Source: an archaeon (GTDB taxonomy: Archaea; Nanobdellota; Nanobdellia; Pacearchaeales; GW2011-AR1). From it: a stretch of DNA of 64,000 bases. Each line of letters starts with the position of its first letter. Within the stretch, counting starts at the first letter, position 1. The notes beneath the pieces were generated by a model. That model did not search any database, had not been told where the DNA came from, and was given only the letters and a program-made list of their open reading frames with translations. Of this stretch, positions 11,796 through 37,876 are shown in pieces. The DNA is taken from contig JBDRNU010000025.1 of NCBI GenBank assembly GCA_043810775.1, forward strand, positions 48,417 to 112,416, written 5' to 3'. A program made the position numbers and the translations under genes.

Positions 11796-13541
11796 TTACT
11801 TGTTTTTTCCTTTAATCTTTCTTACAGTGCCATGATTCATTCTTAGCTCGAGTTCATCTCCGTTTTTCAGTACTTTTGTGGCTATTTTTGTGCCTATTAT
11901 GCAAGGTTTATTCATTTCTCGAGAGACTATAGCTGCATGGCTTGTAATCCCCCCTATATCAGTTATTACTGCTCTTGCTTTTCTCATTAGTTGGACAAAA
12001 TCTGGACGAGTCATTGGAGTAATTAGAATTTCATCTTCTGAAATTGTTTCTTTATAGGGATTTAAAATTACTTTAGCTTTTCCTAAAATAATTGGATTTT
12101 CACCTCTACAAGCTATGATTCCTTGGAAATTTTCTGTTTCAGAATGTGAATTTTCTTTTAAGAGTATATTTTTAATTGGAATTACATCATTTCCTGTAAA
12201 AAAGCTAATCTTATTTTTATTTTGAGATACTATAAAAATACCTTCTCTTCTTTCATTCAGTATATTTATATCAAGGTTTTTTTCAAGTAAATCTGGGAGT
12301 TCACTTATTTTTGCGTAAGATGTTAGTTTTGGTTCTAGTCCTGTTCTTTTTCCAAATTCTTCAAAAAATCTGAACATATGATGCAGCATCATTAGAACTA
12401 TCTTTTTTCTTTCGTCTTTTATCCATGTTACATTTTGAATGTGCTGTAGTTCTTGGTCTATTTCTGAAGGTATTTTAAATTGTTTTATTATATTATTTCT
12501 TTTTTCTTTAATTGCTTCTGTATCTTCAAGTTCATTAAGTTCTTTTTTTAAATCAGTTAGGGTAAATTCTTTTAGTGCTCCTTTTATAAATTCAGTGAAT
12601 TCTATTATTGAGAGTATTGTCCATTGCCCATATGAATTCTGCACCCAATAATAATTTTGCTGATGCTCTTGTATTGCTCTGAATATTTCTGGATAATTCA
12701 TTTTTAGTTCTGCTAGATAATCTGCATAAGGTAGATTTTTTATAAGATTTCTTTGACGAGGGCTTTGAAAGTATTTTAAAATTAATCTTAGGAAGTCTCT
12801 TCTTTCTCTTGCTACAAATGATAATTCAAATGGAAGTGTTAGAGTTGCAAATGATTCTTTTGCTTTTTTTTCATCACCAATTAGCTTTGTAATTTTTGGC
12901 ATGTAATAATCATCTAAATAATGATTATATGGTTCAACTACTAGGCCTACTTCCCAGAATTTTCCTAGAACTTTGTTAAATTTATTAAATTCTTCAACTA
13001 GTGCTTCATTTGATAAAGAATCAATTTTAATGAATTCTAGTCTTTTTAGGAATTTTTCTGTTTTTTCATAAATCTCTTCATATTCTTTTAAGAAGATTTC
13101 AATTTTTTCTGGATCTTCTTTTACTGCTTTTATTTGCGCTTTACAGCTTTCTAGTGATTCTTGGATACTTAGAATTTGTTTCATGTAGTCTTTTTCTGTG
13201 TAAAATATTGAGTGTGATAAGCAGGGTTTGAAGTATTTTTCAGTGTCTGACATTTTTAAGATTCCTATTTCAAGAGTTAAAGGAAGGCCTGGAGCTTCGT
13301 CTGTCCAGAATTTTTCTGTTTTTATATAATTCATAAACTGGTCTTTATTAATTTCTTCTATTTCTTGTTTTTTATTTAGGAATTTATCAAGGTCTTGTTT
13401 TTTATAACGTCTATCTCCACGATTACCTATTCTAATTGCTTTTAAAATTCCAGAATTATCCCAGTTTCTTAGGGTTATTTTACTAACTCCAAGTAGTTTA
13501 GCTGCTGAACTTATATCAATTAAATCTGTATTTTTAACCAT
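11796..13541 (-). CDS. MerR-type HTH + helical middle region + C-terminal PEP-utilizer mobile (phosphohistidine swivel) domain protein (581 aa)
   Basis: N-terminus ISSAAKLLGVSKITLRNWDNSGILKAIRIGNRGDRRYKKQDL (MerR/excisionase-like HTH). C-terminus MTRPDFVQLMRKARAVITDIGGITSHAAIVSREMNKPCIIGTK (swivel domain with the His). Confidence 0.85.
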   Translation of the reverse strand: MVKNTDLIDISSAAKLLGVSKITLRNWDNSGILKAIRIGNRGDRRYKKQDLDKFLNKKQEIEEINKDQFMNYIKTEKFWTDEAPGLPLTLEIGILKMSDTEKYFKPCLSHSIFYTEKDYMKQILSIQESLESCKAQIKAVKEDPEKIEIFLKEYEEIYEKTEKFLKRLEFIKIDSLSNEALVEEFNKFNKVLGKFWEVGLVVEPYNHYLDDYYMPKITKLIGDEKKAKESFATLTLPFELSFVARERRDFLRLILKYFQSPRQRNLIKNLPYADYLAELKMNYPEIFRAIQEHQQNYYWVQNSYGQWTILSIIEFTEFIKGALKEFTLTDLKKELNELEDTEAIKEKRNNIIKQFKIPSEIDQELQHIQNVTWIKDERKKIVLMMLHHMFRFFEEFGKRTGLEPKLTSYAKISELPDLLEKNLDINILNERREGIFIVSQNKNKISFFTGNDVIPIKNILLKENSHSETENFQGIIACRGENPIILGKAKVILNPYKETISEDEILITPMTRPDFVQLMRKARAVITDIGGITSHAAIVSREMNKPCIIGTKIATKVLKNGDELELRMNHGTVRKIKGKNK

Positions 13542-13619: not shown

Positions 13620-14948
13620 TTAAAGAATCTTTATTACACCAGTATTAGCATCTACTTCAACTTCTTGGCCGTCCTTTAAGACTTGTGTAGCTATTTTAGT
13701 TCCTATAATACAAGGCTTTCTTAGTTCACGAGCTACTATAGCAGCGTGGCAAGTAATTCCACCTTCATCTGTTATTATAGCAGAAGCTTTTTTACAAGCT
13801 GTTATGATATTTGGACGTGTCATTTCACTAACTAAGACGTCTCCTTCTTGCATATTTTTTATTTTTTCCAAGTGATTGTCAGCGTTTCTATAGGAAAGCA
13901 CTATAACCTTACCTTTTACTTTTCCTTTGTTTGCTATAGCTCCTTTTAATTCTTTTAAATCTAATTTTACAGATAAACTTTCTTTAATCTCTTTAGCTTT
14001 ATTTCCTTCAAGTATATTTATTTCATTATTTTTTAAAATAAATATTGAGCTTTCTTTTCTTTCCTGTAATATGCTTTTTTCAATTTTCTTTCCTGTTTCA
14101 AGCATTTTAGCTATTTCTTGATAATTGCAAAGTCTAAGCTCTTCTTTTGATATCTTAAGCCTGGTTTTTATTTCTTCTAGGATCAATTCATTATAATATA
14201 GGGCTTGCATCCAGATAAGCCTCATTCTAAATCTTTGCTCAGTTATATTTCTTAAGATATCTGAAATTAATACAGCTTCTCCTGGAATTTCAGAATTTTG
14301 AATTAAGCTCATTCTTTCTTTTTGATCTGCATCCTCTTCTTTGAATAAGACTTTTTTATTAAGATTTTTGTCTATTTTAGCTTCTTCTGACTTAATTGAT
14401 TCTGCAAATGATTTTAAGAAAGGATTATTTTTTTCATTAATGATGAATCTCTTTTTAGGAGTAGTCAAAGCAATTATTATTCCATCTATATCTTTTATTC
14501 CTTGACTGGTTAATAAATCTCTTAATTTTTTTTCTATTTTACTTATATTATGTGGTTGAGTTGCAATGTAGCTTATAAAACACTCTTTTATTCCCCTTCC
14601 AAAAGTATCTAGTAAGTTACTTAACTCTTCATTGCTTATTTCTTTGAAATCTTGTTCAGCTAGTTTTTGCATTTGGGTCACTATCGAACTGTAAGCAGTT
14701 TTTACTTCTTTTTCAAATTTCTTGAATTTAGTAGTACTTCTGAAAAATTCATATCCTTCATTTTCAGCTTTTTTAAGTTCTTCTTCTTGAACATAAAATT
14801 CAGCATTAAATCCATTACCCCATACTAGTGCTTGGCTTATTCCAAATCCAAATCTTTCTTTTAGTCTTGGACCGTAATTTAGCAAGATACCATTTAAGTC
14901 ATAGTAATTCTGATTTTCATCTGCCCACATTAAAATATATTTATTCAT
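13620..14948 (-). CDS. X-swivel protein: unassigned helical N-terminal region + C-terminal PEP-utilizer mobile domain (442 aa)
   Basis: C-terminus MTRPNIITACKKASAIITDEGGITCHAAIVARELRKPCIIGTK. The start overlaps the stop of the upstream 251-aa gene by 8 nt. Confidence 0.85.
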   Translation of the reverse strand: MNKYILMWADENQNYYDLNGILLNYGPRLKERFGFGISQALVWGNGFNAEFYVQEEELKKAENEGYEFFRSTTKFKKFEKEVKTAYSSIVTQMQKLAEQDFKEISNEELSNLLDTFGRGIKECFISYIATQPHNISKIEKKLRDLLTSQGIKDIDGIIIALTTPKKRFIINEKNNPFLKSFAESIKSEEAKIDKNLNKKVLFKEEDADQKERMSLIQNSEIPGEAVLISDILRNITEQRFRMRLIWMQALYYNELILEEIKTRLKISKEELRLCNYQEIAKMLETGKKIEKSILQERKESSIFILKNNEINILEGNKAKEIKESLSVKLDLKELKGAIANKGKVKGKVIVLSYRNADNHLEKIKNMQEGDVLVSEMTRPNIITACKKASAIITDEGGITCHAAIVARELRKPCIIGTKIATQVLKDGQEVEVDANTGVIKIL

Positions 14949-16788: not shown

Positions 16789-18516
16789 TTATTTTATGAC
16801 TTTTATTAGCCCGTGATGCATTCTTATTTCAATTTCTTGACCTGATTGAAGAACTTTTGTAGCATTTTTAGTGCCTATAATGCATGGTTTGTTCATTTCT
16901 CTTGAAACTATAGCTGCATGACAAGTTATTCCACCTTCATCTGTAATTACTGCTCTTGCTTTTCTCATTAGTGGGACGAAATCAGGACGAGTCATACTAG
17001 TAACTAGTATTTCATCTTCTGAAATTGTTTCTTTGTTAGGGTTGAGAATTACTTTTACTTTCCCCCGTATAATTGGTTCGCTGCCCCTACATGCGACGTT
17101 TCCCTCTATTTCATATACAGTCTTAGTCTCAATATTTTTTGAGACTAGTTTTTTAAATTCTAGAAATTCATTTCCTACTAGTATGCTGAATTTGTTTGGT
17201 TTTTGAGATATAAACGAGCAGCCATTACGCCTTTGCTGTAAAGTGGAAATTGGCATTGAATTTTGGAGTATAAGGGGGATTTCTTCTGTTTTTGCATATC
17301 CTATTAGTTTTTCATTAATTCCTGTTCTTCTTGCAAATTCTTCTATAAATCCGTGTATATTATGTAGATATATTAAAATAACTCTTTTTCTATCATCTTT
17401 AATCCATGTAATATTTTTTATATATTCTAACTCCTTTACTACTTTTTCAGGGATTTTTAATTCTTTAATTAGCTCTTCTTGTTCTTTTTTAAGAGCATCA
17501 AAATTTGTTATTTTGTCTAGTTCTTGTCTAGCTTGTTCAATTGTAGATTCTTTTATAGAGTCCCTTAAAATATTCAGAAAATCAGTTACTTGCAAAATTG
17601 TTCTATCTAGATAATTGTTTTGAACCCAAAAAAATTCTCTTTGGTGTTTTAAAAGAGCTTCAAAGAATTTGGGTTCGTTAATTTTTATATATGTTAAGAA
17701 ATCTTCGTTTGAATCATTCATAATTTTTTTTCTTTTTTTATTATTGTTTAGATATTTTATAATCATATTTAGAAGGCTTTTTCTTTCTTCAGCTGTGAAT
17801 GAGGACTTTGTTGGAAGAGTCAGCAATGAAAAAGCATGTCTTGCTTTTTTCTTGTCACTTGCTTTTTTCTCAAAATCTAGGTAATAAAGGTCTGTAAATG
17901 GGTCGTGTGATTCAACAAGTAAATTAATATTCCAAAATTCAATTAAAGGCTTGTTAAATAAATTAAATTCTTTTAATAGTTCTTCTGTTGAAAGTTCTTT
18001 GAGTCTAATAAATTCTAAACGAGTCATTGCTGTTTCAAATTTTTTAGATCGCTTAGCCCATTCTTTAAAGAAATTTTCTATTTTTTTTGGATTTTTATTT
18101 ACTGCTTCAAACTGGGCCCTACAATTTTCAATAGATTCTGATAAACTTAAAGATTGGATTATAAAATCATTTTCTGATAAATGTGGGTAGAAGGTTACTC
18201 CTGGTTTAAACCAATTTTCCATTTTAGCGCCCTCTTTAATTCCTAGTTCTGCTGTAATAGGGAGTCCTGGAAGTTCTTGAAACCAGAAATCATTGTGTTT
18301 TACCCAGTTCCAGAAGAATTCTTTGTCAATTTCTGGACATTTTTCCTTATTTAAAAGCTTGTTTATATCCTCTTTTTTATAACGTCTATCTCCACGATTA
18401 CCTATTCTTACTGCTTTTAAAGTCCCAGAATTATCCCAGTTTCTAAGGGTTTTCTTACTAATCCCTAGCTGTTCTGCAGCTGTATTTATTCCAACTAATT
18501 CTTCATTTTTAGCCAT
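16789..18516 (-). CDS. MerR-type HTH + helical middle region + C-terminal PEP-utilizer mobile domain protein (575 aa)
   Basis: N-terminus INTAAEQLGISKKTLRNWDNSGTLKAVRIGNRGDRRYKKEDI. C-terminus MTRPDFVPLMRKARAVITDEGGITCHAAIVSREMNKPCIIGTK. Confidence 0.85.
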   Translation of the reverse strand: MAKNEELVGINTAAEQLGISKKTLRNWDNSGTLKAVRIGNRGDRRYKKEDINKLLNKEKCPEIDKEFFWNWVKHNDFWFQELPGLPITAELGIKEGAKMENWFKPGVTFYPHLSENDFIIQSLSLSESIENCRAQFEAVNKNPKKIENFFKEWAKRSKKFETAMTRLEFIRLKELSTEELLKEFNLFNKPLIEFWNINLLVESHDPFTDLYYLDFEKKASDKKKARHAFSLLTLPTKSSFTAEERKSLLNMIIKYLNNNKKRKKIMNDSNEDFLTYIKINEPKFFEALLKHQREFFWVQNNYLDRTILQVTDFLNILRDSIKESTIEQARQELDKITNFDALKKEQEELIKELKIPEKVVKELEYIKNITWIKDDRKRVILIYLHNIHGFIEEFARRTGINEKLIGYAKTEEIPLILQNSMPISTLQQRRNGCSFISQKPNKFSILVGNEFLEFKKLVSKNIETKTVYEIEGNVACRGSEPIIRGKVKVILNPNKETISEDEILVTSMTRPDFVPLMRKARAVITDEGGITCHAAIVSREMNKPCIIGTKNATKVLQSGQEIEIRMHHGLIKVIK

Positions 18517-18608: not shown

Positions 18609-20270
18609 CTACTTTTCTAGAATCCTAATTACTCCGTGATTTGCATCTACTTCAACTAAGTCACCTGTTTTTATTGTCCTAGTAGCAGATTTTGTACCTA
18701 CTATGCATGGAACTCCAAGCTCGCGAGAAACAATAGCAGCATGGCAAGTAATTCCTCCTTCATCTGTGACTAGGGCAGAGGCTTTTTTCATAGCTGGTAG
18801 AAAGTCAGGAGTAGTCATACCTGTAATTAGTATCTGGCCTGGTTTTATTTTATGAGTATTAGCTAGAGTAATAGCTACAAAAGCTTCTCCAACTACTTTT
18901 CCAGGTGAAGCACTAATACCTTGCAGATCTTTTACATCTCCAATATGATCTCCCAAGATTTTTTCATGCTCTTTTGAGGCATGAATTCCACTCCAGGTGG
19001 AGATTTTTCCATTGTTGTTAAAATAAAGAAAGTGTTCTTTTCTCTGGTTTATTTCGTTTTCATTTAACTCACCTTTTTGCAGTATTGAAATTATTTCTTC
19101 AGGGAGACACCAATCTAGTAGTGATGCATGAACTTTTGAGCGTTTTGAGATTTCATCAAGAATCTGAAATTCATAATAATTGTACTTCATCTGAACTTCT
19201 TTTCTAAAATCATGATAAATAAACAGCCTATCTAGGATTCTTAGGTATTCTGCAAGCTCTTTATCTTTTGATAAGTTATACTCCTTTTCAACAGCATTTT
19301 TTTCCTTTTTTGCTTTTTCTTTGTATTTTTGAATTTCATCAAGCTCATTTTGCACTTCTTTTTCTGATTTTTTATTACTTTTAATTTCTGAGTCAAAGTA
19401 TGAAAAATCTTTTCCTTTTTCTCTAGGCCAACCTAAATTTGTCCACCAGAATAGTTCAACTAGTTTTTGTATTCTTGCTTTAAATTCTTGTGAACTATTA
19501 ATAATTCTCCCAGATTTTAAATCTTTAATAGTTTCTAAAACCATTTTTCTTTCATCATTTAGATAAGAAAGCTGGCTTGGCATTGTAGATATATTATAAA
19601 TTCTGATAAATTCTCTTTCAGTGTATTTCTCTTTTAGTTTGTTTTTTAAGATGTTCTTAATTTTTTCATTTATATCAATTGCCAGACTTTCATCAGTTCC
19701 ATCAATTGCCATAACTATGCTATAAAATTCATAAATAATTTGAGCGAATTTTTTATAATGTAAAGCTAGTTCTGAGGTTTTCATTTTTTCAACTTTTTCT
19801 TTAGGAGTGTTTTTAATAAATGCTAGAAGCTCTGCTGATTTTTCATCCCATGATTTGAAGAAATTGTTTTCAAAATCTTTTGAGCTTAGGAATTTTTCAA
19901 TTACTTTTTTACCTATTTCATACAAATTATTTTTATCATAGTACCAGAACAAGGTGCTATTTTCAAAGTAATTCATTAAATATTTAGCATTAATATCAAA
20001 ATATTTTTTAATCCCACTTCTTAACGCTTCTAGTGGGTGTATTGATTGATGATAGCTTGTACCGCTTCGAATATATTCTAGCCATTCTATCTTCTTTTGT
20101 TTTGATTTTTCTAAGAATTCTAGGAGGTCTTGTTCTCTGTACTTTCTATCTCCTCTTGCACCTACTCTTACTGCTTTAAGCTTTCCCTCTCGATCCCATT
20201 TTCTTAAAGTTATGGGTTTGATGCCTAGCTTTTTAGCTGCTTCTTGTAAATTTAGTAGATTTTCAGCCAT
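18609..20270 (-). CDS. MerR-type HTH + helical middle region + C-terminal PEP-utilizer mobile domain protein (553 aa)
   Basis: N-terminus LQEAAKKLGIKPITLRKWDREGKLKAVRVGARGDRKYREQDL. C-terminus MTTPDFLPAMKKASALVTDEGGITCHAAIVSRELGVPCIVGTK. Confidence 0.85.
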   Translation of the reverse strand: MAENLLNLQEAAKKLGIKPITLRKWDREGKLKAVRVGARGDRKYREQDLLEFLEKSKQKKIEWLEYIRSGTSYHQSIHPLEALRSGIKKYFDINAKYLMNYFENSTLFWYYDKNNLYEIGKKVIEKFLSSKDFENNFFKSWDEKSAELLAFIKNTPKEKVEKMKTSELALHYKKFAQIIYEFYSIVMAIDGTDESLAIDINEKIKNILKNKLKEKYTEREFIRIYNISTMPSQLSYLNDERKMVLETIKDLKSGRIINSSQEFKARIQKLVELFWWTNLGWPREKGKDFSYFDSEIKSNKKSEKEVQNELDEIQKYKEKAKKEKNAVEKEYNLSKDKELAEYLRILDRLFIYHDFRKEVQMKYNYYEFQILDEISKRSKVHASLLDWCLPEEIISILQKGELNENEINQRKEHFLYFNNNGKISTWSGIHASKEHEKILGDHIGDVKDLQGISASPGKVVGEAFVAITLANTHKIKPGQILITGMTTPDFLPAMKKASALVTDEGGITCHAAIVSRELGVPCIVGTKSATRTIKTGDLVEVDANHGVIRILEK

Positions 20271-20959: not shown

Positions 20960-22390
20960 TTAGAGAATTCTTACTATACCTTTATCTGCGTCTATTTCAA
21001 CTAGGTCGCCTGTTTTTAGGATTTGAGAAGCTATTTTAGTGCCGACTATGCATGGAATTTTTAGTTCACGAGAGACAATGGCTGCATGACAGGTGACTCC
21101 TCCTTCATCTGTGATTATAGCTCCTGCAAACCTCATTAGTGGTGCAAATTCTGGACGAGTCATTCCAGTGACTAGGATTGTCCCTTGCTTAAAATCAGTT
21201 GCTTTAAATGGGTCTCTTACGATTCTTACTATTCCTTGAACTTTGCCTGGATAAGCTGACTGTCCTGTAATTAACTTATCTGATGATTTTTGTTTTTCTT
21301 GGGAAAGGTAGATTCTATCTATTTGTTGTTTTATTGTGTCAAAGGTATTATATTCTTCTTCTATTTGCCCGTTATAATATGCTATTATAGAGTATCCTTT
21401 TAGTCTTTTCTTAATATAATTTTTATTTTCTTTTAAGTAGCTTATTCCTTGAATTAGCTCTTCAAAATTATAATAATATATTAAGTCTTTTTCTAAACCA
21501 GCTTCATTAAACATTTTTTGAGCTACTCTAAACTGAATTGTGATTCCTTTGGAAATTGGGTCTTTTCTTGAGTCTCTTATATTAATTATCTCTTGTATGT
21601 AATGGACAAGTTTTTTTTCATCCTGGTTTAATTTATTTAAGAATTCTTGAAATTGATTTAGTTTTTCTTCTGATGCTTCTGGAATTTCTGAGTCTTCATA
21701 TTTTTCTTTTAATAGGTCTTGGACTATTTCTGGGCTTTCAACGTTTTTATAATCTGCAAACTGGTATTGGAGTTTTTCTGAGACTATTTGCCAGTTTTTG
21801 TGTTTTTTTGTAATTTCCATAGCAGCTAATTGCCTTTTTTTGTCAAATGAATCACTTATTGGAGTGGTAGCTTGGTCCCAGATTTGATTTAGCCTTTGTT
21901 TTGTAATTGGTATTTTAAGTTCTTTTATTAGTTTAATACACATTGACTTGTCAAATTGAGTTGCAAACCAGGCTAGGCAGTTTAAGTGACGTACAGAATC
22001 AATTATTTCTTTAAGATAGTTTAGAATTGTATCATAATTATTTTTTTGGATAAAGTCATAAGTAAGTTTATTGTATATTTTATCTATTTTATCACTAAAT
22101 TCTTTGAAAATTTTCTTTCTTTCTTGTAATTTATTTGGATTTTTCCAGTATTGCCTGAAAAAATCTTCAGCCATATTATTATAAGTTGTTTCTGACATGA
22201 ATACAATTCCTTCGTCTTGTTTCATTGTTATTAGAAAAGTCATGTTTAAAGGCAGTGTGTAATATAATTCATGAAAATTAGGGGCAAATCCTCCTGCTCC
22301 GTTTGCTAGCATTGTTACATTATGTACAGGTGGGTAGAATCTATGGCCTCTCATTATTTCTAGAAACTTATCCATTAGTGTAGGCTTCAT
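20960..22390 (-). CDS. X-swivel protein (476 aa): unassigned N-terminal region + C-terminal PEP-utilizer mobile domain
   Basis: C-terminus MTRPEFAPLMRFAGAIITDEGGVTCHAAIVSRELKIPCIVGTK. The start overlaps the upstream stop (ATGA). Confidence 0.85.
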   Translation of the reverse strand: MKPTLMDKFLEIMRGHRFYPPVHNVTMLANGAGGFAPNFHELYYTLPLNMTFLITMKQDEGIVFMSETTYNNMAEDFFRQYWKNPNKLQERKKIFKEFSDKIDKIYNKLTYDFIQKNNYDTILNYLKEIIDSVRHLNCLAWFATQFDKSMCIKLIKELKIPITKQRLNQIWDQATTPISDSFDKKRQLAAMEITKKHKNWQIVSEKLQYQFADYKNVESPEIVQDLLKEKYEDSEIPEASEEKLNQFQEFLNKLNQDEKKLVHYIQEIINIRDSRKDPISKGITIQFRVAQKMFNEAGLEKDLIYYYNFEELIQGISYLKENKNYIKKRLKGYSIIAYYNGQIEEEYNTFDTIKQQIDRIYLSQEKQKSSDKLITGQSAYPGKVQGIVRIVRDPFKATDFKQGTILVTGMTRPEFAPLMRFAGAIITDEGGVTCHAAIVSRELKIPCIVGTKIASQILKTGDLVEIDADKGIVRIL

Positions 22391-23925
22391 TTTTTCATAC
22401 CTATTTTTCTAATTATTCCAGTTGAACCGTGAATTTCAACTATTTCACCGTTTTTAAGCACTTTTGTACCAATCTTAGTGCCTACAACACAAGGAACTCC
22501 AAGCTCGCGAGAAACAATAGCAGCATGGCAAGTAATTCCCCCCTCGTCTGTTATGATTGCTGAAGCCAGCCTCATAGCTGGAACAAAATCAGGAGTAGTC
22601 ATTGTAGCCACTAGAATTTCACCTTTTTGCATTTCATTGACTTTGCTAGGATCTAGCAAGACTCTCACATTACCTAGAGCATTTCCAGGGTTGGCTGTTG
22701 TTCCTTTAATTTCTGTTACAGTTTGGTCTATTTTTTCTACAAATGCATCAAATATCTTGTCTGCTTCTTGTCCAGAATATGCTGAAAACTTTCCTTGGAT
22801 GCAGTAGAAAAATCCTTTTTCATTTCTTCTTTCAAGCTCTTTTTTATCAATTTTGTTTTTAAGCAGAGCTTCTTTTAGTTCATTAAATAAGAGCATGTTA
22901 AGTAATTGCCTTGGAATGTTAAGTCTTTTTGCTGTTTCTTTTCTCCAATTAATCATGTGATAATGAGATATAGTGTATTTCTCTTTTTTAAAGTCAAGAA
23001 GATAGCCTGAATCAGCGATTTCTTGGAATAATCTAACTATTTCTTTATGGAGTTTAAGTTCTGTTATAATTTGATTCTTTTTTGCTTTAATATTTTCAGA
23101 GTATTTTTCAAGTTCGCTTATCTTATCTTGCACTTTAATTTTGCTTTTTAATCTGTCTTTTATAACAGTTAGAAAATAATCCAAATCCCATATTGCACTT
23201 CCATAATCATATGGTACCCACGAGAATTTTTTTTCATGCTCTAAGAGTTTTTTGTAAAATGGTTGAAAATTTTTTAAAGATTCTTTAATTTTCTTTATTT
23301 CTTTAATATCAAATACCTTTTCTAGGGCTTTATTTCCTTTGACTTCTTTTATTAGCTTAAATAATTCTAGTTCTTCTTTATTGACAAAGCTTGGAGTATC
23401 AGGTGTTATCAGTGTTGTTATATATGAGTCTAGTATTTTTTTATCATTTATTTTATCTTGGATTTCTTTTTTCAGCTCTTCTACAAATCCAAACCTTAGT
23501 CCCCAACTAACCATTTCACTATATGGGTATGCTTCAAGGTATAACTTATAGTATTCCCTGTATATTTCAAATAGTTCTTCATTACTCTTCTTTGTCAAAT
23601 CTTTATTTGAAATTTCAAGCGTAAACTTATTCAGTGTTCCCACTTTTTCTTTGAAGTTTTTTATAAGATTTTTTACTGAAAGTTTATTGCTCTTTGCATT
23701 TTTGATTACTGTGTTTTCAAATTTACTAAAGAAATCTTCACGAAAAACCCAGTACATTCTTCCTTTTTTAAATGCTACTACTAAGTCTCTTAAACTTTCT
23801 CCTAAGACTTCTGCTACGTTTGAGGTTGCTCCTTCCATTATTGGTAGAGCTAGTATCATATTAACATCATTATTGCTTCTTTCTTGGGCTATTACTAATC
23901 CTTTTGGGCTTATTTTTATTTTCAT
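22387..23925 (-). CDS. X-swivel protein (512 aa)
   Basis: C-terminus MTTPDFVPAMRLASAIITDEGGITCHAAIVSRELGVPCVVGTK. ATGA overlaps at both junctions. Confidence 0.85.
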   Translation of the reverse strand: MKIKISPKGLVIAQERSNNDVNMILALPIMEGATSNVAEVLGESLRDLVVAFKKGRMYWVFREDFFSKFENTVIKNAKSNKLSVKNLIKNFKEKVGTLNKFTLEISNKDLTKKSNEELFEIYREYYKLYLEAYPYSEMVSWGLRFGFVEELKKEIQDKINDKKILDSYITTLITPDTPSFVNKEELELFKLIKEVKGNKALEKVFDIKEIKKIKESLKNFQPFYKKLLEHEKKFSWVPYDYGSAIWDLDYFLTVIKDRLKSKIKVQDKISELEKYSENIKAKKNQIITELKLHKEIVRLFQEIADSGYLLDFKKEKYTISHYHMINWRKETAKRLNIPRQLLNMLLFNELKEALLKNKIDKKELERRNEKGFFYCIQGKFSAYSGQEADKIFDAFVEKIDQTVTEIKGTTANPGNALGNVRVLLDPSKVNEMQKGEILVATMTTPDFVPAMRLASAIITDEGGITCHAAIVSRELGVPCVVGTKIGTKVLKNGEIVEIHGSTGIIRKIGMKK

Positions 23926-24974
23926 TTTGCTTTTTTTAGTATTTTAATTATACCTTTATCTGCATCTACTTCTACTATATCATTATCATTTAAAACTTTT
24001 GTGGCTATCTTAGTTCCTATAATGCATGGTATTTTCATCTCTCGGGCTACAATTGAGGCATGACAAGTTATACCTCCTTCATCTGTTACTATTGCAGCAG
24101 CTTTTTTTAAATATTTGACTATTTCAGGACGAGTCATTGGTGCTACTAAGATAAAATCTTTTTTGTTTTTGAAGATTTTTTTGTAATTTCCATAATCTTT
24201 TTCTGTTATTTTTATTACTTGGCCTTTTGCGAATCCAGTGTAAGCTGAATTTCCTGATATTTGGTTCTTTTCACTAAGTTTTGGTTCTTGATTTACTAAG
24301 AAATTTTCAATTTCTTCTGCTTCTTTATTCAAGTAAATATTGAATTGATTATTAATAATTGTAATTGCTAGGGGTCTATTTTCTGTTATTTTTATTTTAT
24401 TTCCTTTTAATATATTAATAATTTCTTCTGAGGTAGCTCTTTCAAGTTGTTTAATCTTATATTCTAATTTTTTTTGTATATACTTTATTATTTTATTATA
24501 TGCTCTCCATATTAGGTCTACAAATTTGGAAAGTTTTATTCTTATTTCTGGTAGCTCTTTTAATAATTTGGAGTCATTTGTGTCAAAATATTCTTCTGTG
24601 TAAAATAAGTATGTTTTATAAAGTTCAAGGCATTGGTTATTTAGAAAGTTCATTCCTTTAATTGCTTTATCTTTATCTAGTTTTGAATTAATGAAACTCT
24701 TTACTTTCTGCTTGTTATTTTTTATATATTTCAAGCTATCTGAATTTATTTTATTTATTAGTTTTTCATCAGAAAGCTTTATTTTTGAAGCTTGTTCATC
24801 CCAGACTTGAAAATTTTTATTTTGAAAAACTACCAAATTAGGTGTTTTGTTTGCAATAATCTTGTAATATGGATTATTAATATGTGCATGGCAGGCATAT
24901 TCCCATGATATGACTGGAGTTATTGAAAACACTTCATATTTACTGAATTTATGTGTTTTTAGAAGGGTTATCAT
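23922..24974 (-). CDS. X-swivel protein (350 aa)
   Basis: C-terminus MTRPEIVKYLKKAAAIVTDEGGITCHASIVAREMKIPCIIGTK. ATGA overlaps at both junctions. Confidence 0.85.
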   Translation of the reverse strand: MITLLKTHKFSKYEVFSITPVISWEYACHAHINNPYYKIIANKTPNLVVFQNKNFQVWDEQASKIKLSDEKLINKINSDSLKYIKNNKQKVKSFINSKLDKDKAIKGMNFLNNQCLELYKTYLFYTEEYFDTNDSKLLKELPEIRIKLSKFVDLIWRAYNKIIKYIQKKLEYKIKQLERATSEEIINILKGNKIKITENRPLAITIINNQFNIYLNKEAEEIENFLVNQEPKLSEKNQISGNSAYTGFAKGQVIKITEKDYGNYKKIFKNKKDFILVAPMTRPEIVKYLKKAAAIVTDEGGITCHASIVAREMKIPCIIGTKIATKVLNDNDIVEVDADKGIIKILKKAK

Positions 24975-26038
24975 TTTATAATTCTCACTATACCTTTATC
25001 TGCATCTACTTCAACCAAGTCTCCATCTTTTAATAGCTGAGTGGCTATTTTTGTGCCGATTACACAAGGAACTCCAAGCTCGCGAGAAACAATAGCAGCG
25101 TGTGATAGTAGGCCCCCCTCATCTGTTATAATAGCTGCTGCTTTTTTGCAGGCTAGAATAGTATCTGGGCGAGTCATTTCTGTAACTAGAATTTCACCTT
25201 TTTTAAATTTAAATACTTCTTTAAGGATGTTCTTTTTATTATGAAGAAGAATTCTTACTTTGCCGCTAGCTTTTCCTTTCATTGCTGTTTTACCTATAAG
25301 TTTATTTACTTTTTTAACAGATAGCATTTCCTTGTATATTTTTTTAAATTTTTTGCCAGTTATTAAGGACGGCTTGCCTTTTAGAGTGTAAAATAAGTAT
25401 CCTCTTGATCTTTCTTCAAGAATCTTGTGAGAAACTTTCTTACCATTGAAAATTTTTATGATCTCTTGATTATTATAAAAAAATAAATCTTTTACTTTAA
25501 CTTGAAATCTTCTTGAAATTTCTTTAAGCACTACACCTAGAAGAAAATAGAATAAAACCTCCCCTTCTTTTCTCAAAATAAATCTTAATTTGCTTAAATC
25601 TATAATTAAACTTTCATGTTTTGACGCTTCTTTTTCCAGGTTAAACAGGAAAAAATCCTCTGTTTTCATATAAATATTAGAATAATTAACTAAAGTTTTT
25701 AGAATATTATTAAAAAATAAACTTTTTAATTGGGAATTAGACAGATTTTTAATTTTTATATTATTAAAATATTGCTTTGTTTTTTCAATTTCCTTAAGTA
25801 TTTGTTGGACCTGCTTCTTGTAATTTTTAATATTTCCATTATTTGTGAAGAATTTATAGCCATATCCTGCTGTTTTCTTGTCTCTGTCATTTAAATAATA
25901 AACGTGAATGACTGAATTTTTGTAAAGAATGAGCATGTCATTTGCAAAAAGCTCTATGCTCTTATTGGATAGGAAAAATAGGGGTAGCCTAAGCTCCCTT
26001 GCCCAGAATGTTATTTTGTATATTCCTTTTGGCAACAT
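24971..26038 (-). CDS. X-swivel protein (355 aa)
   Basis: C-terminus MTRPDTILACKKAAAIITDEGGLLSHAAIVSRELGVPCVIGTK. The start lies 1 nt after the stop of the 1667-aa gene. Confidence 0.85.
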   Translation of the reverse strand: MLPKGIYKITFWARELRLPLFFLSNKSIELFANDMLILYKNSVIHVYYLNDRDKKTAGYGYKFFTNNGNIKNYKKQVQQILKEIEKTKQYFNNIKIKNLSNSQLKSLFFNNILKTLVNYSNIYMKTEDFFLFNLEKEASKHESLIIDLSKLRFILRKEGEVLFYFLLGVVLKEISRRFQVKVKDLFFYNNQEIIKIFNGKKVSHKILEERSRGYLFYTLKGKPSLITGKKFKKIYKEMLSVKKVNKLIGKTAMKGKASGKVRILLHNKKNILKEVFKFKKGEILVTEMTRPDTILACKKAAAIITDEGGLLSHAAIVSRELGVPCVIGTKIATQLLKDGDLVEVDADKGIVRIIK

Positions 26039-26039: not shown

Positions 26040-29000
26040 TTATTTAGCTTTCTTTTTAGATAGGACTTTTACTACACCAATATCTGCATCTACTTCCACA
26101 ACTTCTCCTTCACCCAAAATATCTGTTGCATTTACTGTTCCTACTATTGTTGGTTTTTTTAGTTTCTCAGCAACAATTGCAGCATGACAGCTTCTTACTA
26201 TTCCTTCATCAGCGTCAACTTCAACTCTTTTTCCTTCTTGCAAAAATTCTGTTGCTATTTTAGTGCCTATTATTGTAGGTTTTTTAAGCTCACGGGCTAC
26301 TATAGCTGCATGGCAGGTAATTCCCCCTTCATCTGTTACAATTCCTCCTGCCAGTTTCATGGCTGGTACGTATCTTGGATCAGTCATACTTGTAACTAGA
26401 ATATCTCCTTTTTCAATTTTTTTTGCATCTTCTATTTTTCTTATAATTCTGACTCTTCCTATAGCTTTTCCTTTATATGCTGAGACGCCTTTAATTTCTT
26501 GGTTTTCTTTTTTTTCATTAAGTTCATCCCATAAAGATTCTTTGTAAAATATTTCTTGACCTTTCGAGGTATATTTTATGATGCAAAATTTTTTTCTTTT
26601 TTCAATATCTGGAATTTTCTTGGTTTTAAGGAATTCTTCAAATTCATCTATTGTGAGGTATTTTAAAGAGCCTTTTTTAGTATTGTACTTTTTTTCAAGT
26701 TTTGTTAGTATTTTTTCCTCGATTATGAAACTTCTTTTATGCACATCTTCATATGCTCTTCTTATTTCTAGGGCTATATCATTAATTTCTTTTGGAATAT
26801 CTTCTCCATAGTACATTGGAACTTCATATCCTGAAAGAATAACATTTGTAAAGTCAACAAATGTTTTGTAGAGTTTTACTGCTGCTTTTTCTGGGTTTTT
26901 GTAGCTATCTTTGTAAAATTTGTTAAATTCAGTGAGTTTTTTGTCATATTGCTTTTTTATTTTTCTAAAATCCTCTAAAGTATTTCTTTGGATAAGGCTT
27001 TTACTTCTTTTTCTTCCATCTTCTTTTGATGTATAGTGGTAGAGGATGTCATCTCTCATTGTTATATAACATGGACTTGATCCTACTCCAAAAAATTCCT
27101 TATTTTCATTAAATAAACCTTTAAAGACACAAGTTGTTCCTAAAATAGAATAGTCTCTTTGATGTCTGTCATAATCAAGAGACTTGTCAAATTCTAAAAG
27201 AGTTGTTTTTTTATCATGTCTGTGCTGGCTTTTTTCTAATATTATTACTTGGGCGTGATTTGCTTTTACTTCAACTAAATCCCTGTCTTTAAGGATTTTT
27301 GTTCCAACTTTTGTGCCAATTATACAAGGTATTCCAAGTTCACGAGAGACAATTGCAGCATGGCAAGTCATTCCTCCTTCATCTGTAACTATTGCTGATG
27401 CTCGTTTCATAGCTGGAAGATATTCTGGGCGAGTCATTCCAGTTACAAGTATCTTCCCTTGTTCAAAGTTCTTAATGTCCTCTAGTGTTTTGCAGATTGA
27501 AACCTCCCCTATTGCCTGTCCTGTAGATGCACATGTTCCACTTATTGTTGTTGACTCGATAATTTTTTCTTGATCTGAAATTTTCTCATATATTTCTTTT
27601 GCTTTATCCCCGCTAAAAATTATTATATTATTTGGAAGAGAGGGATTCATAATCCATATGAACATTTCTTCTCTATTTTTGATTTCTTTCTGAAATTCTT
27701 TATCTAAAAACTTCTTGCTTTCAATTTCCCGAGGCATTAGATAATAGAGTTTTTTAACAGGAATTTTATATTTTTCTGCTATTTTGTGCAAGACTTTATC
27801 ATGCTCGCATACAGCTTTCATAATATTTTCTTTTCTTTCATCTTGCCAGAGTGTACAAAATGAGAGAAGATTAGCAAGATTTTGAGTTTTTCGATCTATA
27901 TTGTATTTTTTAATTATTTGTTTTTTTGCAACTCTTATTTTAATAAAGTGATCTTTTGGTAGCAATTTAATTGAATCTTTTTGCTCAAGTAGCTCCTTTA
28001 TTGTTAGAGGATCAGTTCCAGCATAACTGCTTTTAATCCATTCAAATTTTTCAAGGTGTTTTTCAAGAAGTTTTTTTTGCTTATTCTTATCTTTAGATTT
28101 AAATGCTTTTAATAGACTTTCATCATGGCGATTGTTAAATGATTCTTCTTCTGGCATGGTTAATACATTTAACGCTTCATTAAGCTGTTTTAAATCTTTT
28201 ATTTTTTTATCAAGCAAATGTTTTAATACATGGCTTTGAGTTAAGGAAAATGCTTCAATTACATGACCTGTTCCTACTCCATAACCAATTAGGTCAAAAG
28301 TTATCTTAAATACCTCTAACAATTCTTTCTCTGAATAATCTGTTTTAGCTTTTGATTTTAGCTTGTTGTATTGCTTTGAAAATTGGTTGCTGTAGATTAT
28401 TCTGGTTTTTTGAAAATATTTTTCATCTTTTTTTAATTTATTAAGTATAATCTCTCCAACTCTCTCTAAGTCAGATTTTATGTAAGACATGTCCCCAAAG
28501 TCTTTTTCTGACTTGAACATAAATTTCTCATAGCTATATCCTAAAGGATCCTTCATTTTATCTGTTGAGTCTACAGCTGCATTAAAGAATACTGGATATG
28601 CAGAGCCTTGTTGAGTTATTCTCTCTTCTTTTAGTATTTTTTCGATAATTTCGCTACTTGGGTTCTGGTCATTAAGTATTTTTACTATACCTTTATCTGC
28701 ATCCACTTCGACTTCCTGGCCGTCTTTAAGTACCTTTGTAGCTATATTAGTGCCAATTATACAGGGTTTTTTTAGCTCACGAGAAATAATAGCTGCATGA
28801 CATAAAATTCCCCCCATATCTGTTATAATAGCAGCTGCTTTTTTCATCAATGGAACATAATTTGGATCTGTCATACTACACACAAGAATCTCCCCTTCTT
28901 TAAATTTTAAAAAGTCATGACTTCCAAGCACTATTTTAATATTTCCTTTAACAACTCCTTTATAGGTTGGTGTGCCTGTGAAATCTTTTGTTTCTTTTAG

Positions 29001-31043
29001 TATGGTATCAAGATAATCCTTTTTTAGCTTGTCTAAATCTTTTTTGCATAATAAATAGTTATTATTTATAGAAATCATAGCCACATCATTTCCTAGACAA
29101 GAATCTTCTAAAGTGAGTTTCTTTCTTTCCAATAACTTATAAAATTGATCAAGTGGCAGAGATAACAATTTTTCGTAAGATATTTTATTCGCTGATGCAA
29201 TTTTTTTAAAAACAGGTTTTAAATTGTATACTGCTTTGTTAGTCACTTCATTATTAAGAATTCTTCCTACTGAAAAGATGTTTAGGATTTTAATTAATTC
29301 ATTTAATTTTTTATCTTTAAAATTATGTTTTTCAAATCCTCTTTTTTCATTATCTGCTCTCTTAATCTGTTCTAGAATATCTTGTTTAGTGTAACCTTCT
29401 CCAGATAGAAAGTATTGGTTTAAATAACTGTATTCTTCAATCACTTTATCTATATCTTTTGAACTAAATTTTCCTTTTTCTCTTAATCTTGCTATTTCAG
29501 TCTCAAGTTTAAATGCATCTGATTCTTCATCTTTATCTAATAATTCTGGCACTGTAATTTGTTTTATTTTTAGTTCATCAAATCTTTTCAATATTGATTC
29601 TTCAAGATAATTACTCATATCCCTTAATATTTCAAATACAACAAGAATTGTTAATACTTTCTCTAGGATATTTGATACTGATTTTTCATTATAGTTTTTC
29701 TTTTTAGATATTTCCCCTATTTCTTTCTCAAGTTCTTTTCTGAATTTCTCTTGATTTTTATTAAAATTATAAATAAAACTAAAGTCTCCTGAATCTATTC
29801 TTCCAACTACTTTTTTTTCAATTATTTCAAGTTCTTTTTCTGCGACGTAAACATCATAACCTGCTGATAAATATTTAATAGGAGGAATATCTTGAATTCC
29901 ATATTTTTTTAAATAAAATCTAGATTGTGAACTATTGAATATATCAAACATTAATCTTGGAACTCTCCAACTACCTACTTTTTTCCAATTATCTTTTTTG
30001 TATTTATCAATAAATTCTTTGTATGAAATTTGTTCACTTTCTTTAAATGGAGTTTCAGAATAAGTCACTTCATCTTTTTTTTTAGGCTCTTCCTCTTCTA
30101 AGGAAGTTAGAGTAGTAATTGGGCGAGATTGAGTTATGTATAGCTTACCTTTTTCCATTGCCCATTCAACATCTACTGGGAATCCATAATGGTTTTCTAT
30201 CTTAGCTATTAGTTTTGAAAGTTCAATTATTTCTTTATCTGTTAAAATCTGTTTGTTTCCTTCTTCTCCTAGCTCTCGCCACTCATTTCCCCCACCCTTT
30301 ACTCTGAATAAACCTCTTGATTGTTCTGAGATATTTTTATCAATAATATGCCAGTCCTGCTTGTCTATAACATAGCTATCTGGAGTTATCTGGCCTGAGA
30401 CTATTGCTTCTCCTAAGCCTAGACCTGCTTCAATTATTAGCTGGTTTCTGTCTTGAGTTACAGGATGAACTGAGAATGCTATTCCAGATTCTTCACTAGC
30501 AACCATTTTTTGAACTACTACTGCTACTGATATTTTTTGATTGTGGAGTTTTTGCTCAAATCTATAGAATATTGCTCTTGGAGTGAAAAGTGAGGCCCAG
30601 CATTTTTTTACGTTTTCAAGCAAGCTGGATTTTGTAGTGTTTAGATAAGATTCAAGCTGGCCTGCCCAGGCTGCTGAAGCTGAATCTTCTGCAGTTGCGC
30701 TGGAACGGACTGCTACATATTCTGCACCTAGTTTTTTAAATTCTACTAGAATCTCGGTTTCAATATCTTTAGGCATTTCTGCATTAAGAATTAGAGCTTT
30801 TATTGTTTCTGAAGCTTCTTCTGATGTATGCACTTCTTCTGTATTGACAGTGTCCATGGCTGCGTCAATTTCTGTTATGAGATCCGCTTCTTCAATGAAT
30901 TTTTCAAAAGCATCTGATAATATAACAAATCCTTCTGGAACAGGAATTCCTGCCTGAGTCATTTCACCTAAACTAGCTCCCTTACCACCAGCTATATTTG
31001 CATCATTTTTACTAATTTTGGAAAAATTGAGTGTAAATTGCAT
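26040..31043 (-). CDS. 1667-aa multi-module protein: PpsA/PPDK-type ATP-grasp nucleotide-binding domain + three (helical region + swivel) modules + one C-terminal half swivel; no PEP/pyruvate TIM barrel recognised
   Basis: N-terminus IAGGKGASLGEMTQAGIPVPEGFVI ... VEWAMEKGKLYITQSRPIT (PPDK_N-like, ~aa 1-312, nt ~30108-31043). Swivel His motifs: ITDMGGILCHAAIISRE (His ~aa 749, nt 28797-28799), VTDEGGMTCHAAIVSRE (~aa 1228, nt 27360-27362), VTDEGGITCHAAIVARE (~aa 1578, nt 26310-26312) and the truncated copy SCHAAIVAEKLKKPTIVGT (~aa 1620, nt 26184-26186). Confidence 0.9.
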   Translation of the reverse strand: MQFTLNFSKISKNDANIAGGKGASLGEMTQAGIPVPEGFVILSDAFEKFIEEADLITEIDAAMDTVNTEEVHTSEEASETIKALILNAEMPKDIETEILVEFKKLGAEYVAVRSSATAEDSASAAWAGQLESYLNTTKSSLLENVKKCWASLFTPRAIFYRFEQKLHNQKISVAVVVQKMVASEESGIAFSVHPVTQDRNQLIIEAGLGLGEAIVSGQITPDSYVIDKQDWHIIDKNISEQSRGLFRVKGGGNEWRELGEEGNKQILTDKEIIELSKLIAKIENHYGFPVDVEWAMEKGKLYITQSRPITTLTSLEEEEPKKKDEVTYSETPFKESEQISYKEFIDKYKKDNWKKVGSWRVPRLMFDIFNSSQSRFYLKKYGIQDIPPIKYLSAGYDVYVAEKELEIIEKKVVGRIDSGDFSFIYNFNKNQEKFRKELEKEIGEISKKKNYNEKSVSNILEKVLTILVVFEILRDMSNYLEESILKRFDELKIKQITVPELLDKDEESDAFKLETEIARLREKGKFSSKDIDKVIEEYSYLNQYFLSGEGYTKQDILEQIKRADNEKRGFEKHNFKDKKLNELIKILNIFSVGRILNNEVTNKAVYNLKPVFKKIASANKISYEKLLSLPLDQFYKLLERKKLTLEDSCLGNDVAMISINNNYLLCKKDLDKLKKDYLDTILKETKDFTGTPTYKGVVKGNIKIVLGSHDFLKFKEGEILVCSMTDPNYVPLMKKAAAIITDMGGILCHAAIISRELKKPCIIGTNIATKVLKDGQEVEVDADKGIVKILNDQNPSSEIIEKILKEERITQQGSAYPVFFNAAVDSTDKMKDPLGYSYEKFMFKSEKDFGDMSYIKSDLERVGEIILNKLKKDEKYFQKTRIIYSNQFSKQYNKLKSKAKTDYSEKELLEVFKITFDLIGYGVGTGHVIEAFSLTQSHVLKHLLDKKIKDLKQLNEALNVLTMPEEESFNNRHDESLLKAFKSKDKNKQKKLLEKHLEKFEWIKSSYAGTDPLTIKELLEQKDSIKLLPKDHFIKIRVAKKQIIKKYNIDRKTQNLANLLSFCTLWQDERKENIMKAVCEHDKVLHKIAEKYKIPVKKLYYLMPREIESKKFLDKEFQKEIKNREEMFIWIMNPSLPNNIIIFSGDKAKEIYEKISDQEKIIESTTISGTCASTGQAIGEVSICKTLEDIKNFEQGKILVTGMTRPEYLPAMKRASAIVTDEGGMTCHAAIVSRELGIPCIIGTKVGTKILKDRDLVEVKANHAQVIILEKSQHRHDKKTTLLEFDKSLDYDRHQRDYSILGTTCVFKGLFNENKEFFGVGSSPCYITMRDDILYHYTSKEDGRKRSKSLIQRNTLEDFRKIKKQYDKKLTEFNKFYKDSYKNPEKAAVKLYKTFVDFTNVILSGYEVPMYYGEDIPKEINDIALEIRRAYEDVHKRSFIIEEKILTKLEKKYNTKKGSLKYLTIDEFEEFLKTKKIPDIEKRKKFCIIKYTSKGQEIFYKESLWDELNEKKENQEIKGVSAYKGKAIGRVRIIRKIEDAKKIEKGDILVTSMTDPRYVPAMKLAGGIVTDEGGITCHAAIVARELKKPTIIGTKIATEFLQEGKRVEVDADEGIVRSCHAAIVAEKLKKPTIVGTVNATDILGEGEVVEVDADIGVVKVLSKKKAK

Positions 31044-31235: not shown

Positions 31236-31308
31236 TGCTCCTGCCGGGATTCGAACCCGGATTTCAAGCGCGAGAGGCTCGCGTCCTTAGCCGTTAGACT
31301 ACAGGAGC
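31236..31308 (-). tRNA. tRNA-Glu (anticodon CUC)
   Basis: Manual cloverleaf: acceptor GCTCCTG/CAGGAGC, D-arm GTCT..GGAC, anticodon stem CGAGC/GCTTG with loop CTCTCGC (U33, CUC), T-arm CCGGG-TTCGAAT-CCCGG, discriminator A. No encoded CCA. Confidence 0.85.
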
Positions 31309-35423: not shown

Positions 35424-35449
35424 ACAATTTTGTAAGAAAAATTAAGATG
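35424..35449 (-). repeat. 26-nt direct repeat AACAATTTTGTAAGAAAAATTAAGAT, copy 1 (at the 3' end of the HEPN/MNT cassette)
   Basis: Exact second copy at ~36531-36556. Coordinates are +/-1 nt. Confidence 0.7.
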
Positions 35450-37823: not shown

Positions 37824-37876
37824 GTTTTTATATTAATTTTCTTGTTTAATTCTGTTAAAATTCAGTAAATTTTAAA

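Follow-up and report, generated by a model that had tools for sequence, protein, structure and literature searches.

To our knowledge, every characterised swivel enzyme, whether phosphoenolpyruvate (PEP) synthase, pyruvate phosphate dikinase (PPDK), Enzyme I of the phosphotransferase system (PTS), rifampin phosphotransferase (RPH) or HpeHI, possesses one nucleotide or PEP site, one phosphohistidine carrier and one acceptor site. Among the described systems, two are closest to the locus reported here: RPH of Listeria (RPH-Lm), known from structures 5FBS, 5FBT and 5HV1 (Stogios et al. 2016, PMC4844700), and the HpeHI, CreHI and PpsAB systems, in which a separate ATP-grasp protein charges a second protein made of a pre-swivel region (X) and a swivel (PMC12167813). 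Here we describe a 64 kb stretch of archaeal DNA (64,000 nt; hereafter the window, to which all coordinates refer unless another locus is named) that encodes, at 26040..31043 on the (−) strand, a single 1667-amino-acid (aa) chain with one ATP-grasp and three X-swivel modules, accompanied on the same strand by eight stand-alone X-swivel genes, each with a C-terminal swivel. We favour, with modest confidence, a reading of this locus as a hub-and-spoke, ATP-dependent small-molecule ‘water dikinase’ of the RPH/HpeHI type, in which one ATP-grasp would serve many His carriers.

The reading frame of the large chain starts with ATG and runs through 1667 codons without an internal stop, and because the window has a G+C content of only about 30%, an open frame of 5 kb is not a chance occurrence. 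In the protein, Pfam matched PPDK_N (E 2e-97) to aa 16-324 and PF00391 (PEP-utilizers) to four stretches, and recovered no PEP-utilizers_C (PF02896) or any other barrel, even at E<=1. A swivel hidden Markov model (HMM) trained on the window’s own swivel domains placed complete domains at aa 701-790, 1180-1269 and 1530-1619, with catalytic residues H749, H1228 and H1578, and the regions preceding them (X1, X2 and X3; 376, 389 and 260 aa) are largely helical in AlphaFold models. The initial annotation of this DNA had proposed just such an uninterrupted chain, with a PPDK_N-like N-terminus, swivels on these three His, a helical region before each and no terminal barrel, and these analyses bear it out, including the absence of PEP-utilizers_C between the swivels; its count of three swivel modules holds for the complete domains and overlooked a partial fourth at aa 1618-1667. 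The features of the chain are:

26040..31043, (−) strand: whole open reading frame (ORF), 1667 aa, NCBI MFH1308259.1, ‘PEP/pyruvate-binding domain-containing protein [archaeon]’
30072..30998, (−) strand: PPDK_N ATP-grasp, aa 16-324 (Pfam, residue mapping to RPH-Lm, Foldseek)
28944..30071, (−) strand: X1, putative helical acceptor-binding-type domain, aa 325-700 (hhalign, motif alignment, model of aa 1-790)
28674..28943, (−) strand: swivel 1, phosphohistidine carrier, aa 701-790, His749 codon at 28797-28799
27507..28673, (−) strand: X2, aa 791-1179, with the WQDERK motif at aa 1066-1071 (nt 27831-27848)
27237..27506, (−) strand: swivel 2, aa 1180-1269, His1228 codon at 27360-27362 (swivel HMM)
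26457..27236, (−) strand: X3, short-type X, aa 1270-1529 (X clustering, hhalign)
26193..26456, (−) strand: swivel 3, aa 1530-1617, His1578 codon at 26310-26312 (swivel HMM)
26043..26192, (−) strand: truncated fourth swivel, aa 1618-1667 (HMM positions 48-90 only)

The fourth, partial swivel (HMM match at aa 1617-1661) comprises only the C-terminal half of the domain and opens with S1618-C-H1620. It is identical to the C-terminal half of swivel 3 at 28 of 43 residues, has an unusual K-K-P-T in common with it, and is unique to this chain among the 240 homologues inspected. Since the two copies are only 67% identical at the nucleotide level, a collapsed-repeat assembly error is ruled out, and the remnant appears from its sequence to be an old partial duplication or a deletion scar.

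Comparing the chain with RPH, we found that its first 790 residues are ordered as in that enzyme, with an ATP-grasp followed by a helical substrate domain and, C-terminally, the swivel His, as the initial annotation had also suggested. An AlphaFold model of aa 1-790 (predicted local distance difference test, pLDDT, 76; predicted template modelling score, pTM, 0.49) gave full-length RPH-Lm as its top Foldseek matches (E 1.4e-35, ~910 aligned columns); the global template modelling (TM) score of 0.38 is low, as fits a multi-domain model with uncertain domain placement. Taken from the same model, the ATP-grasp alone reached TM 0.86 to RPH (5hv6) and TM 0.75 to HpeI (9goj), and its residues K21, R113, S132, E293, Q305 and R307 align with K22, R117, T136, E297, Q309 and R311 of RPH-Lm, the nucleotide-phosphate- and Mg-binding positions of that enzyme, so that the catalytic residues of the ATP-grasp are kept. 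Module 2 (aa 791-1270) was modelled from an alignment of 82 sequences (module 2 itself and 81 stand-alone relatives) with pLDDT 95 and pTM 0.93, which indicates that its swivel is confidently docked on X2. RPH-Lm was the sole PDB entry to align with the predicted module as a whole (E 1.7e-11, TM 0.52-0.55, 464-577 columns), every other PDB match covering the swivel alone at TM <=0.21.

The phosphotransfer site lends further, though not decisive, support to the likeness. In RPH-Lm, phosphate cannot pass from His825 to rifampin without R666 and E667, and these residues share a hydrogen-bond network with K670 and Q337 (PMC4844700). We fetched the Listeria rph gene and aligned it by global hhalign and by MAFFT (last 150 X residues plus swivel), and both alignments, at low confidence in this region, set RPH Y-R666-E667-Y-P-K670 opposite W-Q-D-E-R-K of X2 (aa 1066-1071). 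The D, R and K of this X2 motif are invariant across the 82-sequence alignment, where they are among the few invariant X positions, and [RKQH]-D-x-[RK]-K also occurs in the 512-, 476-, 553-, 575- and 581-aa stand-alone modules, for a total of six of the 11 X domains. R-E-x-x-K of RPH would thus correspond to D-x-R-K here, with the Arg shifted by one helical turn in this same low-confidence alignment. All 11 complete swivels keep T-x-x-G-G-x-x-x-H, in the form T-D-E/M/I-G-G-x-x-C/S-H.

Profile comparison by hhalign showed homology among all 11 X regions of the window. Those of the long type, eight in number, align with each other over 300-480 columns at 97-100% probability; X1 is the most divergent and still aligns with the other X families at 97-100% over 300-358 columns. 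Across X families most pairs score 91-100%, the family of the 350-aa gene 6-97%, and the three short X regions (X3 and those of the 355- and 350-aa genes) have mainly the ~95 swivel-proximal residues in common, with longer matches to some of the long types. NCBIfam profiles for RPH, for PigC/RedH and for PRK06241-type ‘PEP synthase’ extend 250-400 residues into several X regions, all below the family cut-offs. The PRK08296 models of NCBIfam, which may represent HpeH/PpsA-like proteins, match the swivel part only, except in one short module.

The stand-alone X-swivel genes of the window are:

24971..26038, (−) strand: 355 aa, short X, 1 nt past the stop of the large ORF
23922..24974, (−) strand: 350 aa, short X, 4-nt overlap with its neighbour
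22387..23925, (−) strand: 512 aa, 4-nt overlap with its neighbour
20960..22390, (−) strand: 476 aa, its X type fused in multi-module chains elsewhere
18609..20270, (−) strand: 553 aa, MerR/excisionase helix-turn-helix (HTH) + X + swivel
16789..18516, (−) strand: 575 aa, MerR HTH + X + swivel
13620..14948, (−) strand: 442 aa, start overlapped by 8 nt by an upstream 251-aa orphan ORF
11796..13541, (−) strand: 581 aa, MerR HTH + X + swivel, 43% identical to the 575-aa paralogue

The first four genes follow the large ORF at spacings of 1, -4, -4 and -4 nt, the 553- and 575-aa modules follow an isochorismatase-family gene, and the 442- and 581-aa modules follow a divergent Lrp/AsnC-type gene and the 251-aa orphan. 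The window therefore encodes 11 complete swivels and one partial swivel against one ATP-grasp in 64 kb (a ratio of 1:11), and a free-standing ATP-grasp-only subunit of the kind that pairs 1:1 with its partner is absent from it, the only ATP-grasp being the one fused to three modules.

These layouts set the locus apart from each of its described relatives. RPH provides the only full-length structural match for module 2 and the best for aa 1-790, yet it has one module per chain, in contrast to three and a remnant here with eight more encoded separately; its swivel motif reads G-G-L-M-T-H rather than G-G-I-T-C-H, the ATP-grasp and swivels of the window are closer in sequence to PEP synthase than to RPH, and we found no evidence for rifamycins as substrates of the window modules. 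HpeHI, CreHI and PpsAB, with X and swivel on a separate polypeptide in an ATP-grasp locus, are a direct precedent for the eight stand-alone genes, but they pair one ATP-grasp protein with one X-swivel protein, whereas here one ATP-grasp, fused to three modules, faces eleven; they also come from aromatic-degrading bacteria, not from the candidate phyla radiation (CPR) or DPANN archaea. The prodigiosin-condensing PigC/RedH enzymes (NF052631, NF052632) have the same ATP-grasp ... swivel layout, and in the 512-aa module the match to the PigC profile spans aa 188-506 and runs deep into X; scores are nevertheless far below the cut-offs, those enzymes have one module per chain, and there are no pyrrole-pathway genes here. 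In sequence, the ATP-grasp and swivels are nearest to PEP synthase and PPDK, which use the same swivelling-His mechanism but carry one swivel per chain, as a central His domain followed by the PEP-utilizers_C TIM barrel. Conceptually, PTS Enzyme I with HPr is also a case of one loader and many carriers, and its His domain is homologous to the swivel, although the window has no HPr, EII or PEP-binding domain. Polyketide synthase and nonribosomal peptide synthetase megasynthases likewise carry several carrier domains on one polypeptide, and there the likeness is by analogy only.

We evaluated the origin of the fused modules from their relatives. The best matches to module 2 are stand-alone proteins of ~470-480 aa, which occur in Woesearchaeota, Nanoarchaeota and Patescibacteria and share 35-47% identity with the module across 98-99% of its length, and the first Met of these proteins aligns to residues 791-798, that is, 0-8 residues past swivel 1; the junction of swivel 1 and X2 is thus a former gene boundary, as expected of an end-to-end gene fusion. 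Cutting 240 homologues into 523 X regions (67 clusters), we found the X2 type free in 119 cases and fused at chain positions 1-5 in 48, the X3 type in 92 cases, fused at positions 1-5 (X3 clustering with 91 other short X regions), and the X type of the 476-aa gene otherwise always fused (36 cases), with one 833-aa protein consisting of a 476-type and an X3-type module without ATP-grasp. Modules 2 and 3 are fusions of this kind of gene, which upholds one part of the initial proposal; the other part, that they derive from the genes immediately downstream, fails, as no neighbour shares more than 27% identity with their X regions, and they are not copies of the adjoining genes.

The window modules look instead like old, distinct subtypes. 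X identities within the window are <=27% except for the 575/581 pair (43%), and its swivels are 63-73% identical to orthologous modules elsewhere, against a median of 54% to paralogues in the window, so that a recent duplication of the downstream genes can be ruled out. Values of 0.58 within a chain and 0.56 between different chains indicate no concerted evolution within chains. Nor did we see an X repertoire common to different genomes: when the window was compared with six other loci, most best matches stayed at <=28% identity, and two X pairs reached 36-40%. Four chains that are collinear over 97-100% of their length, P0035, P0053, P0068 and P0092, were considered as full-length three-module orthologues and rejected, their X regions being only 22-27% identical to those of the window; the collinearity arises from the conserved ATP-grasp and swivels at similar spacing. 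ATP-grasp domains of archaeal (DPANN) and bacterial (CPR) chains are ~65-75% identical, and both groups have orthologues of module 2 (35-47% identity), which suggests that these genes have been exchanged across the two radiations.

Multi-swivel chains of this kind recur widely. Among the matches listed from NCBI, JGI, ENA and Logan assemblies there are 119 other homologues of 1000-2900 aa, and 118 of them carry 2-6 complete swivels per chain by the swivel HMM (a stricter motif count missed a few). Searching the swivel profile against 1.84 billion cluster representatives returned 34,596 matches, of which the best 150 all have at least two swivel stretches, with a maximum of six in a 2648-aa protein; an ATP-grasp is present in 51 of 130 newly retrieved representatives, and in one chain it is placed after three modules. 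Architectural variants with the ATP-grasp after the modules, or without one, include P0243, P0176, P0244 and P0258. The initial annotation had held that known enzymes carry one swivel per chain, which is correct for the characterised enzymes and incorrect for CPR/DPANN sequence data, where 2-6 are common; the view that several swivels on one chain are architecturally unusual must accordingly be corrected for sequence databases, where the layout is not rare.

Relatives were found in Woesearchaeota, Nanoarchaeota and Micrarchaeota. In GTDB species genomes, matches reaching into X2 were mostly from Patescibacteria (Nealson-, Falkow-, Buchanan-, Uhr- and Woesebacteria, and Moraniibacteriota) and from DPANN (Woese-, Micr- and Nanoarchaeota), together with a few short contigs binned to other groups, which may be contamination. 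We examined eight loci. In every one the modules, 5-11 in number, adjoin at least one ATP-grasp chain, and the share of fused and free modules varies:

Window locus: 3 fused and 8 free
L001 (Woesearchaeota): 4 fused and 1 free
L003 (CPR, two chains): 3 and 4 fused and at least 3 free
L005 (CPR): 3 fused and 4 free
L006 (archaeon): 6 fused and 0 free
L007: 5 fused and 1 free
L008 (CPR): 3 fused and 5 free
P0374 locus (archaeal): 1 fused and 5 free

The last of these is fully unfused, with an 806-aa single-module chain and five free modules. Phosphatase-type genes (HD, HAD, His_Phos_1) recur near the clusters, including at L003, L008 and P0374, and their families differ. In our literature search, whose coverage was incomplete, we found no published account of multi-swivel chains or of their spread in CPR/DPANN, which is absence of evidence only; the CPR resistome paper merely counts rph-like matches.

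Three of the eight stand-alone modules (553, 575 and 581 aa) start with a MerR/excisionase-type HTH, and the HTH-X-swivel fusion is kept in 12 homologues on other contigs (29-57% identity). Across the 13 sequences formed by the 553-aa protein and these homologues, no variation was seen in the HTH residues, in an H-D-x-R-K-E-x-Q motif or in the swivel His, which implies that both the DNA-binding and the catalytic-type parts are under selection. The HTH-X-swivel proteins may be enzyme-regulator hybrids. At L008 (8223-11704 of that locus, CPR), HTH_26-X-swivel and MerR-X-swivel genes lie directly upstream of the multi-module chain.

To summarize how the system might work, we interpret the N-terminal ATP-grasp as the site that would bind ATP and pass its beta-phosphate to a swivel His, releasing AMP and Pi. 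The charged swivel would then swing back onto its own tethered helical X domain, which would hold the acceptor, most likely a hydroxyl-bearing small molecule, and the acceptor would take the phosphate. With three different X domains in the chain, three different acceptors are expected. A single ATP-grasp would charge the modules of its own chain in cis and the eight free modules in trans, the latter as HpeI does for HpeH, and the three HTH modules would probably couple this chemistry to transcription. That phosphate moves both in cis and in trans, that the acceptors are small molecules and that the HTH modules have a regulatory role are inferences, and one shared ATP-grasp for all modules, as the initial annotation proposed, is plausible by analogy with HpeHI/PpsAB and from the co-location of an ATP-grasp chain with modules at eight of eight loci. 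Swivel conservation (median 54%) exceeds that of X (<=27%), which fits a shared docking partner. Reverse operation, that is, ATP synthesis from phospho-esters, was set aside on general thermodynamic grounds.

Several observations weigh against this hub-and-spoke interpretation. Sequence profiles of the X domains alone gave no significant hhalign match to the rifampin-binding domain of RPH, so the X-RPH link is only that of predicted structures at a moderate TM of ~0.55, together with partial NCBIfam overlaps. X1, X3 and the X domains of the 355-, 350- and 442-aa modules have only an Arg at the R666 column, without the acid and Lys, such that some modules may be inactive or chemically different. 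Modules of the chain are joined with essentially no linker, and it is not clear how swivels 2 and 3 reach the ATP-grasp in cis. The 79 newly retrieved representatives (of 130) that lack an ATP-grasp nonetheless carry two or three swivels, the loci examined revealed no acceptor, no pathway context and no constant accessory gene, and two phosphoanhydride bonds per phosphorylation is a costly price for energy-poor symbionts.

Some of the same evidence can be read otherwise. With an HTH on three of eight free modules, a fusion whose HTH residues stay invariant in 12 homologues, HTH-bearing genes directly upstream of the chain at L008, and recurrent HD, HAD and His_Phos_1 genes, the system could be mainly a sensory or regulatory phosphorelay, in which the ATP-grasp would keep every swivel charged, ligand on X would drain phosphate, and whether the swivel is phosphorylated, or how it docks, would be the signal that the HTH proteins turn into transcription control, in the manner of ‘trigger enzymes’ or PTS-controlled regulators. 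We consider this distinctly unlikely, as most modules, including all three in the large chain, have no output domain and the HTH modules keep the full H-D-x-R-K-E-x-Q and His, thereby looking like working enzymes too; such regulation fits the hub-and-spoke reading as an addition, not as a replacement. The acceptors might instead be macromolecules (surface glycans, proteins or nucleic acids). In plants, glucan, water dikinase applies this chemistry of ATP-grasp and His carrier to a polymer, some modules would be brought onto DNA by their HTH, and no examined locus has a small-molecule pathway context, but in structure the X domain matches only the RPH domain that forms the pocket for a small molecule, the characterised relatives (RPH, HpeH, CreH, PpsA and, by NCBIfam, PigC/RedH) all act on small molecules, and Pfam revealed no carbohydrate- or nucleic-acid-binding domain besides the HTH, all of which makes macromolecular acceptors improbable in our view. 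A shade more improbable still is ATP-independent transphosphorylation between phospho-metabolites and acceptors by the free modules, with modules 2 and 3 perhaps included. HpeH alone can move phosphate from 4-phosphoacetophenone to a second substrate (PMC12167813), and the ATP-grasp-less multi-swivel representatives would suit such a role, but an ATP-grasp chain adjoins the modules at every one of the eight loci and the conservation of swivels over X points to a common docking partner.

Two further explanations would deny that the chain is a multi-module dikinase at all, and both are effectively excluded. That it is an assembly or sequencing artefact of three or four cistrons is very improbable: the exact protein is known from one contig only, and neighbouring module genes are 1 nt apart or overlap by 4 nt, so that a single indel would fuse them, but 118 of the 119 other listed homologues, from independent assemblies, carry several swivels, as do all of the best 150 among the 34,596 cluster-representative matches, the frame is open across 5 kb with no remnant stop or start at the junction, and the diverged fourth swivel leaves no room for a collapsed repeat. 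We assign a chance close to nil to the chain being a PEP synthase, to which its ATP-grasp and swivels are nearest in sequence and whose NCBIfam model NF005057 scores the whole protein at 724 bits (cut-off 598). That score is the sum of the ATP-grasp and four swivel stretches, the inter-swivel regions are predicted to fold like the RPH substrate domain, and the identity is refuted by the absence of the pyruvate/PEP-binding PEP-utilizers_C barrel.

The surroundings of the module genes were inspected as well. Between the fourth and fifth stand-alone modules lies the isochorismatase-family gene (20326-20922, (−) strand; Pfam E 4e-44), in which, by eye, the usual catalytic Cys position reads T-N-W-V-V. 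Flanking the second module block are the 251-aa orphan ORF (14941-15696, (−) strand) and a 253-aa orphan ORF (10984-11745, (−) strand), neither of which has a Pfam or PDB-sequence match; the 251-aa ORF also has no NCBIfam match, and the two show no mutual homology. A double Lrp/AsnC-type HTH protein of 326 aa (15808-16788, (+) strand) sits between the two module blocks, and a 45% identical homologue occurs at 5658-6641 of L001 (Woesearchaeota), a few kb from a multi-swivel chain; the gene could be a linked regulator or merely reflect shared synteny. Divergent from the large ORF are an APH/fructosamine-kinase-like phosphotransferase (31722-32765, (+) strand) and a His_Phos_1 histidine phosphatase (32750-33451, (+) strand), and tRNA-Glu(CTC) (31236-31308, (−) strand) shares the strand of the ORF and precedes it by ~190 nt.

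Elsewhere the window encodes tRNA-Gln(CTG) (37142-37214, (−) strand), tRNA-Thr(GGT) (37876-37951, (+) strand), a PemK/MazF-like toxin (9662-10015, (+) strand; Pfam E 6e-34), an adjoining HEPN protein and nucleotidyltransferase pair of toxin-antitoxin type (35442-36472, (−) strand), and two giant predicted surface proteins, one of 2524 aa with subtilase S8, CARDB and FG-GAP repeats (256-7830, (+) strand) and one of 2546 aa that combines a beta-helix with a lectin-like Laminin_G_3 domain (41570-49210, (+) strand). Its phenylalanyl-tRNA synthetase subunits resemble the archaeal type by their domain list, and TrmB and Lrp regulators are present. A scan of PADLOC-DB for membership in a known anti-phage defence system was negative for the chain, for one free module and for the neighbours; the 553-aa gene alone gave a match, of its generic HTH to mad1. 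A scan for bacterial-type promoters and terminators, with models unsuited to an archaeon, gave no signal over shuffles.

Set against the characterised systems, what is new here is probably an RPH/HpeHI-type dikinase with a one-to-many layout and HTH-bearing members, its chemistry probably being conventional. Eleven carrier-and-acceptor units, including three in the same chain, go with a single ATP site, an architecture that would surprise specialists in PEP-utilising enzymes, and the plan recurs in two large radiations of ultra-small symbiotic prokaryotes, CPR and DPANN, whose metabolism is poorly understood. As the cut-off of the NCBIfam PEP synthase model is passed by additive domain scores, such chains can be miscounted as gluconeogenic enzymes in these groups. 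A wider idea, which we think unlikely but put forward as speculation, is that CPR and DPANN possess a third histidine phosphorelay beside two-component systems and the PTS, with one ATP-grasp charger and 5-11 interchangeable carriers that would differ from genome to genome and be fused, split and shuffled at will, of which some would be enzymes for diverse acceptors and others, the HTH-X-swivel proteins, would place transcription under the control of acceptor availability. If the hub-and-spoke interpretation is true, a reduced genome would phosphorylate many compounds with one ATP-using domain, the 67 clusters from 523 X regions would represent a large pool of uncharacterised acceptor-binding domains, and the HTH fusions would point to bifunctional enzyme-regulators.

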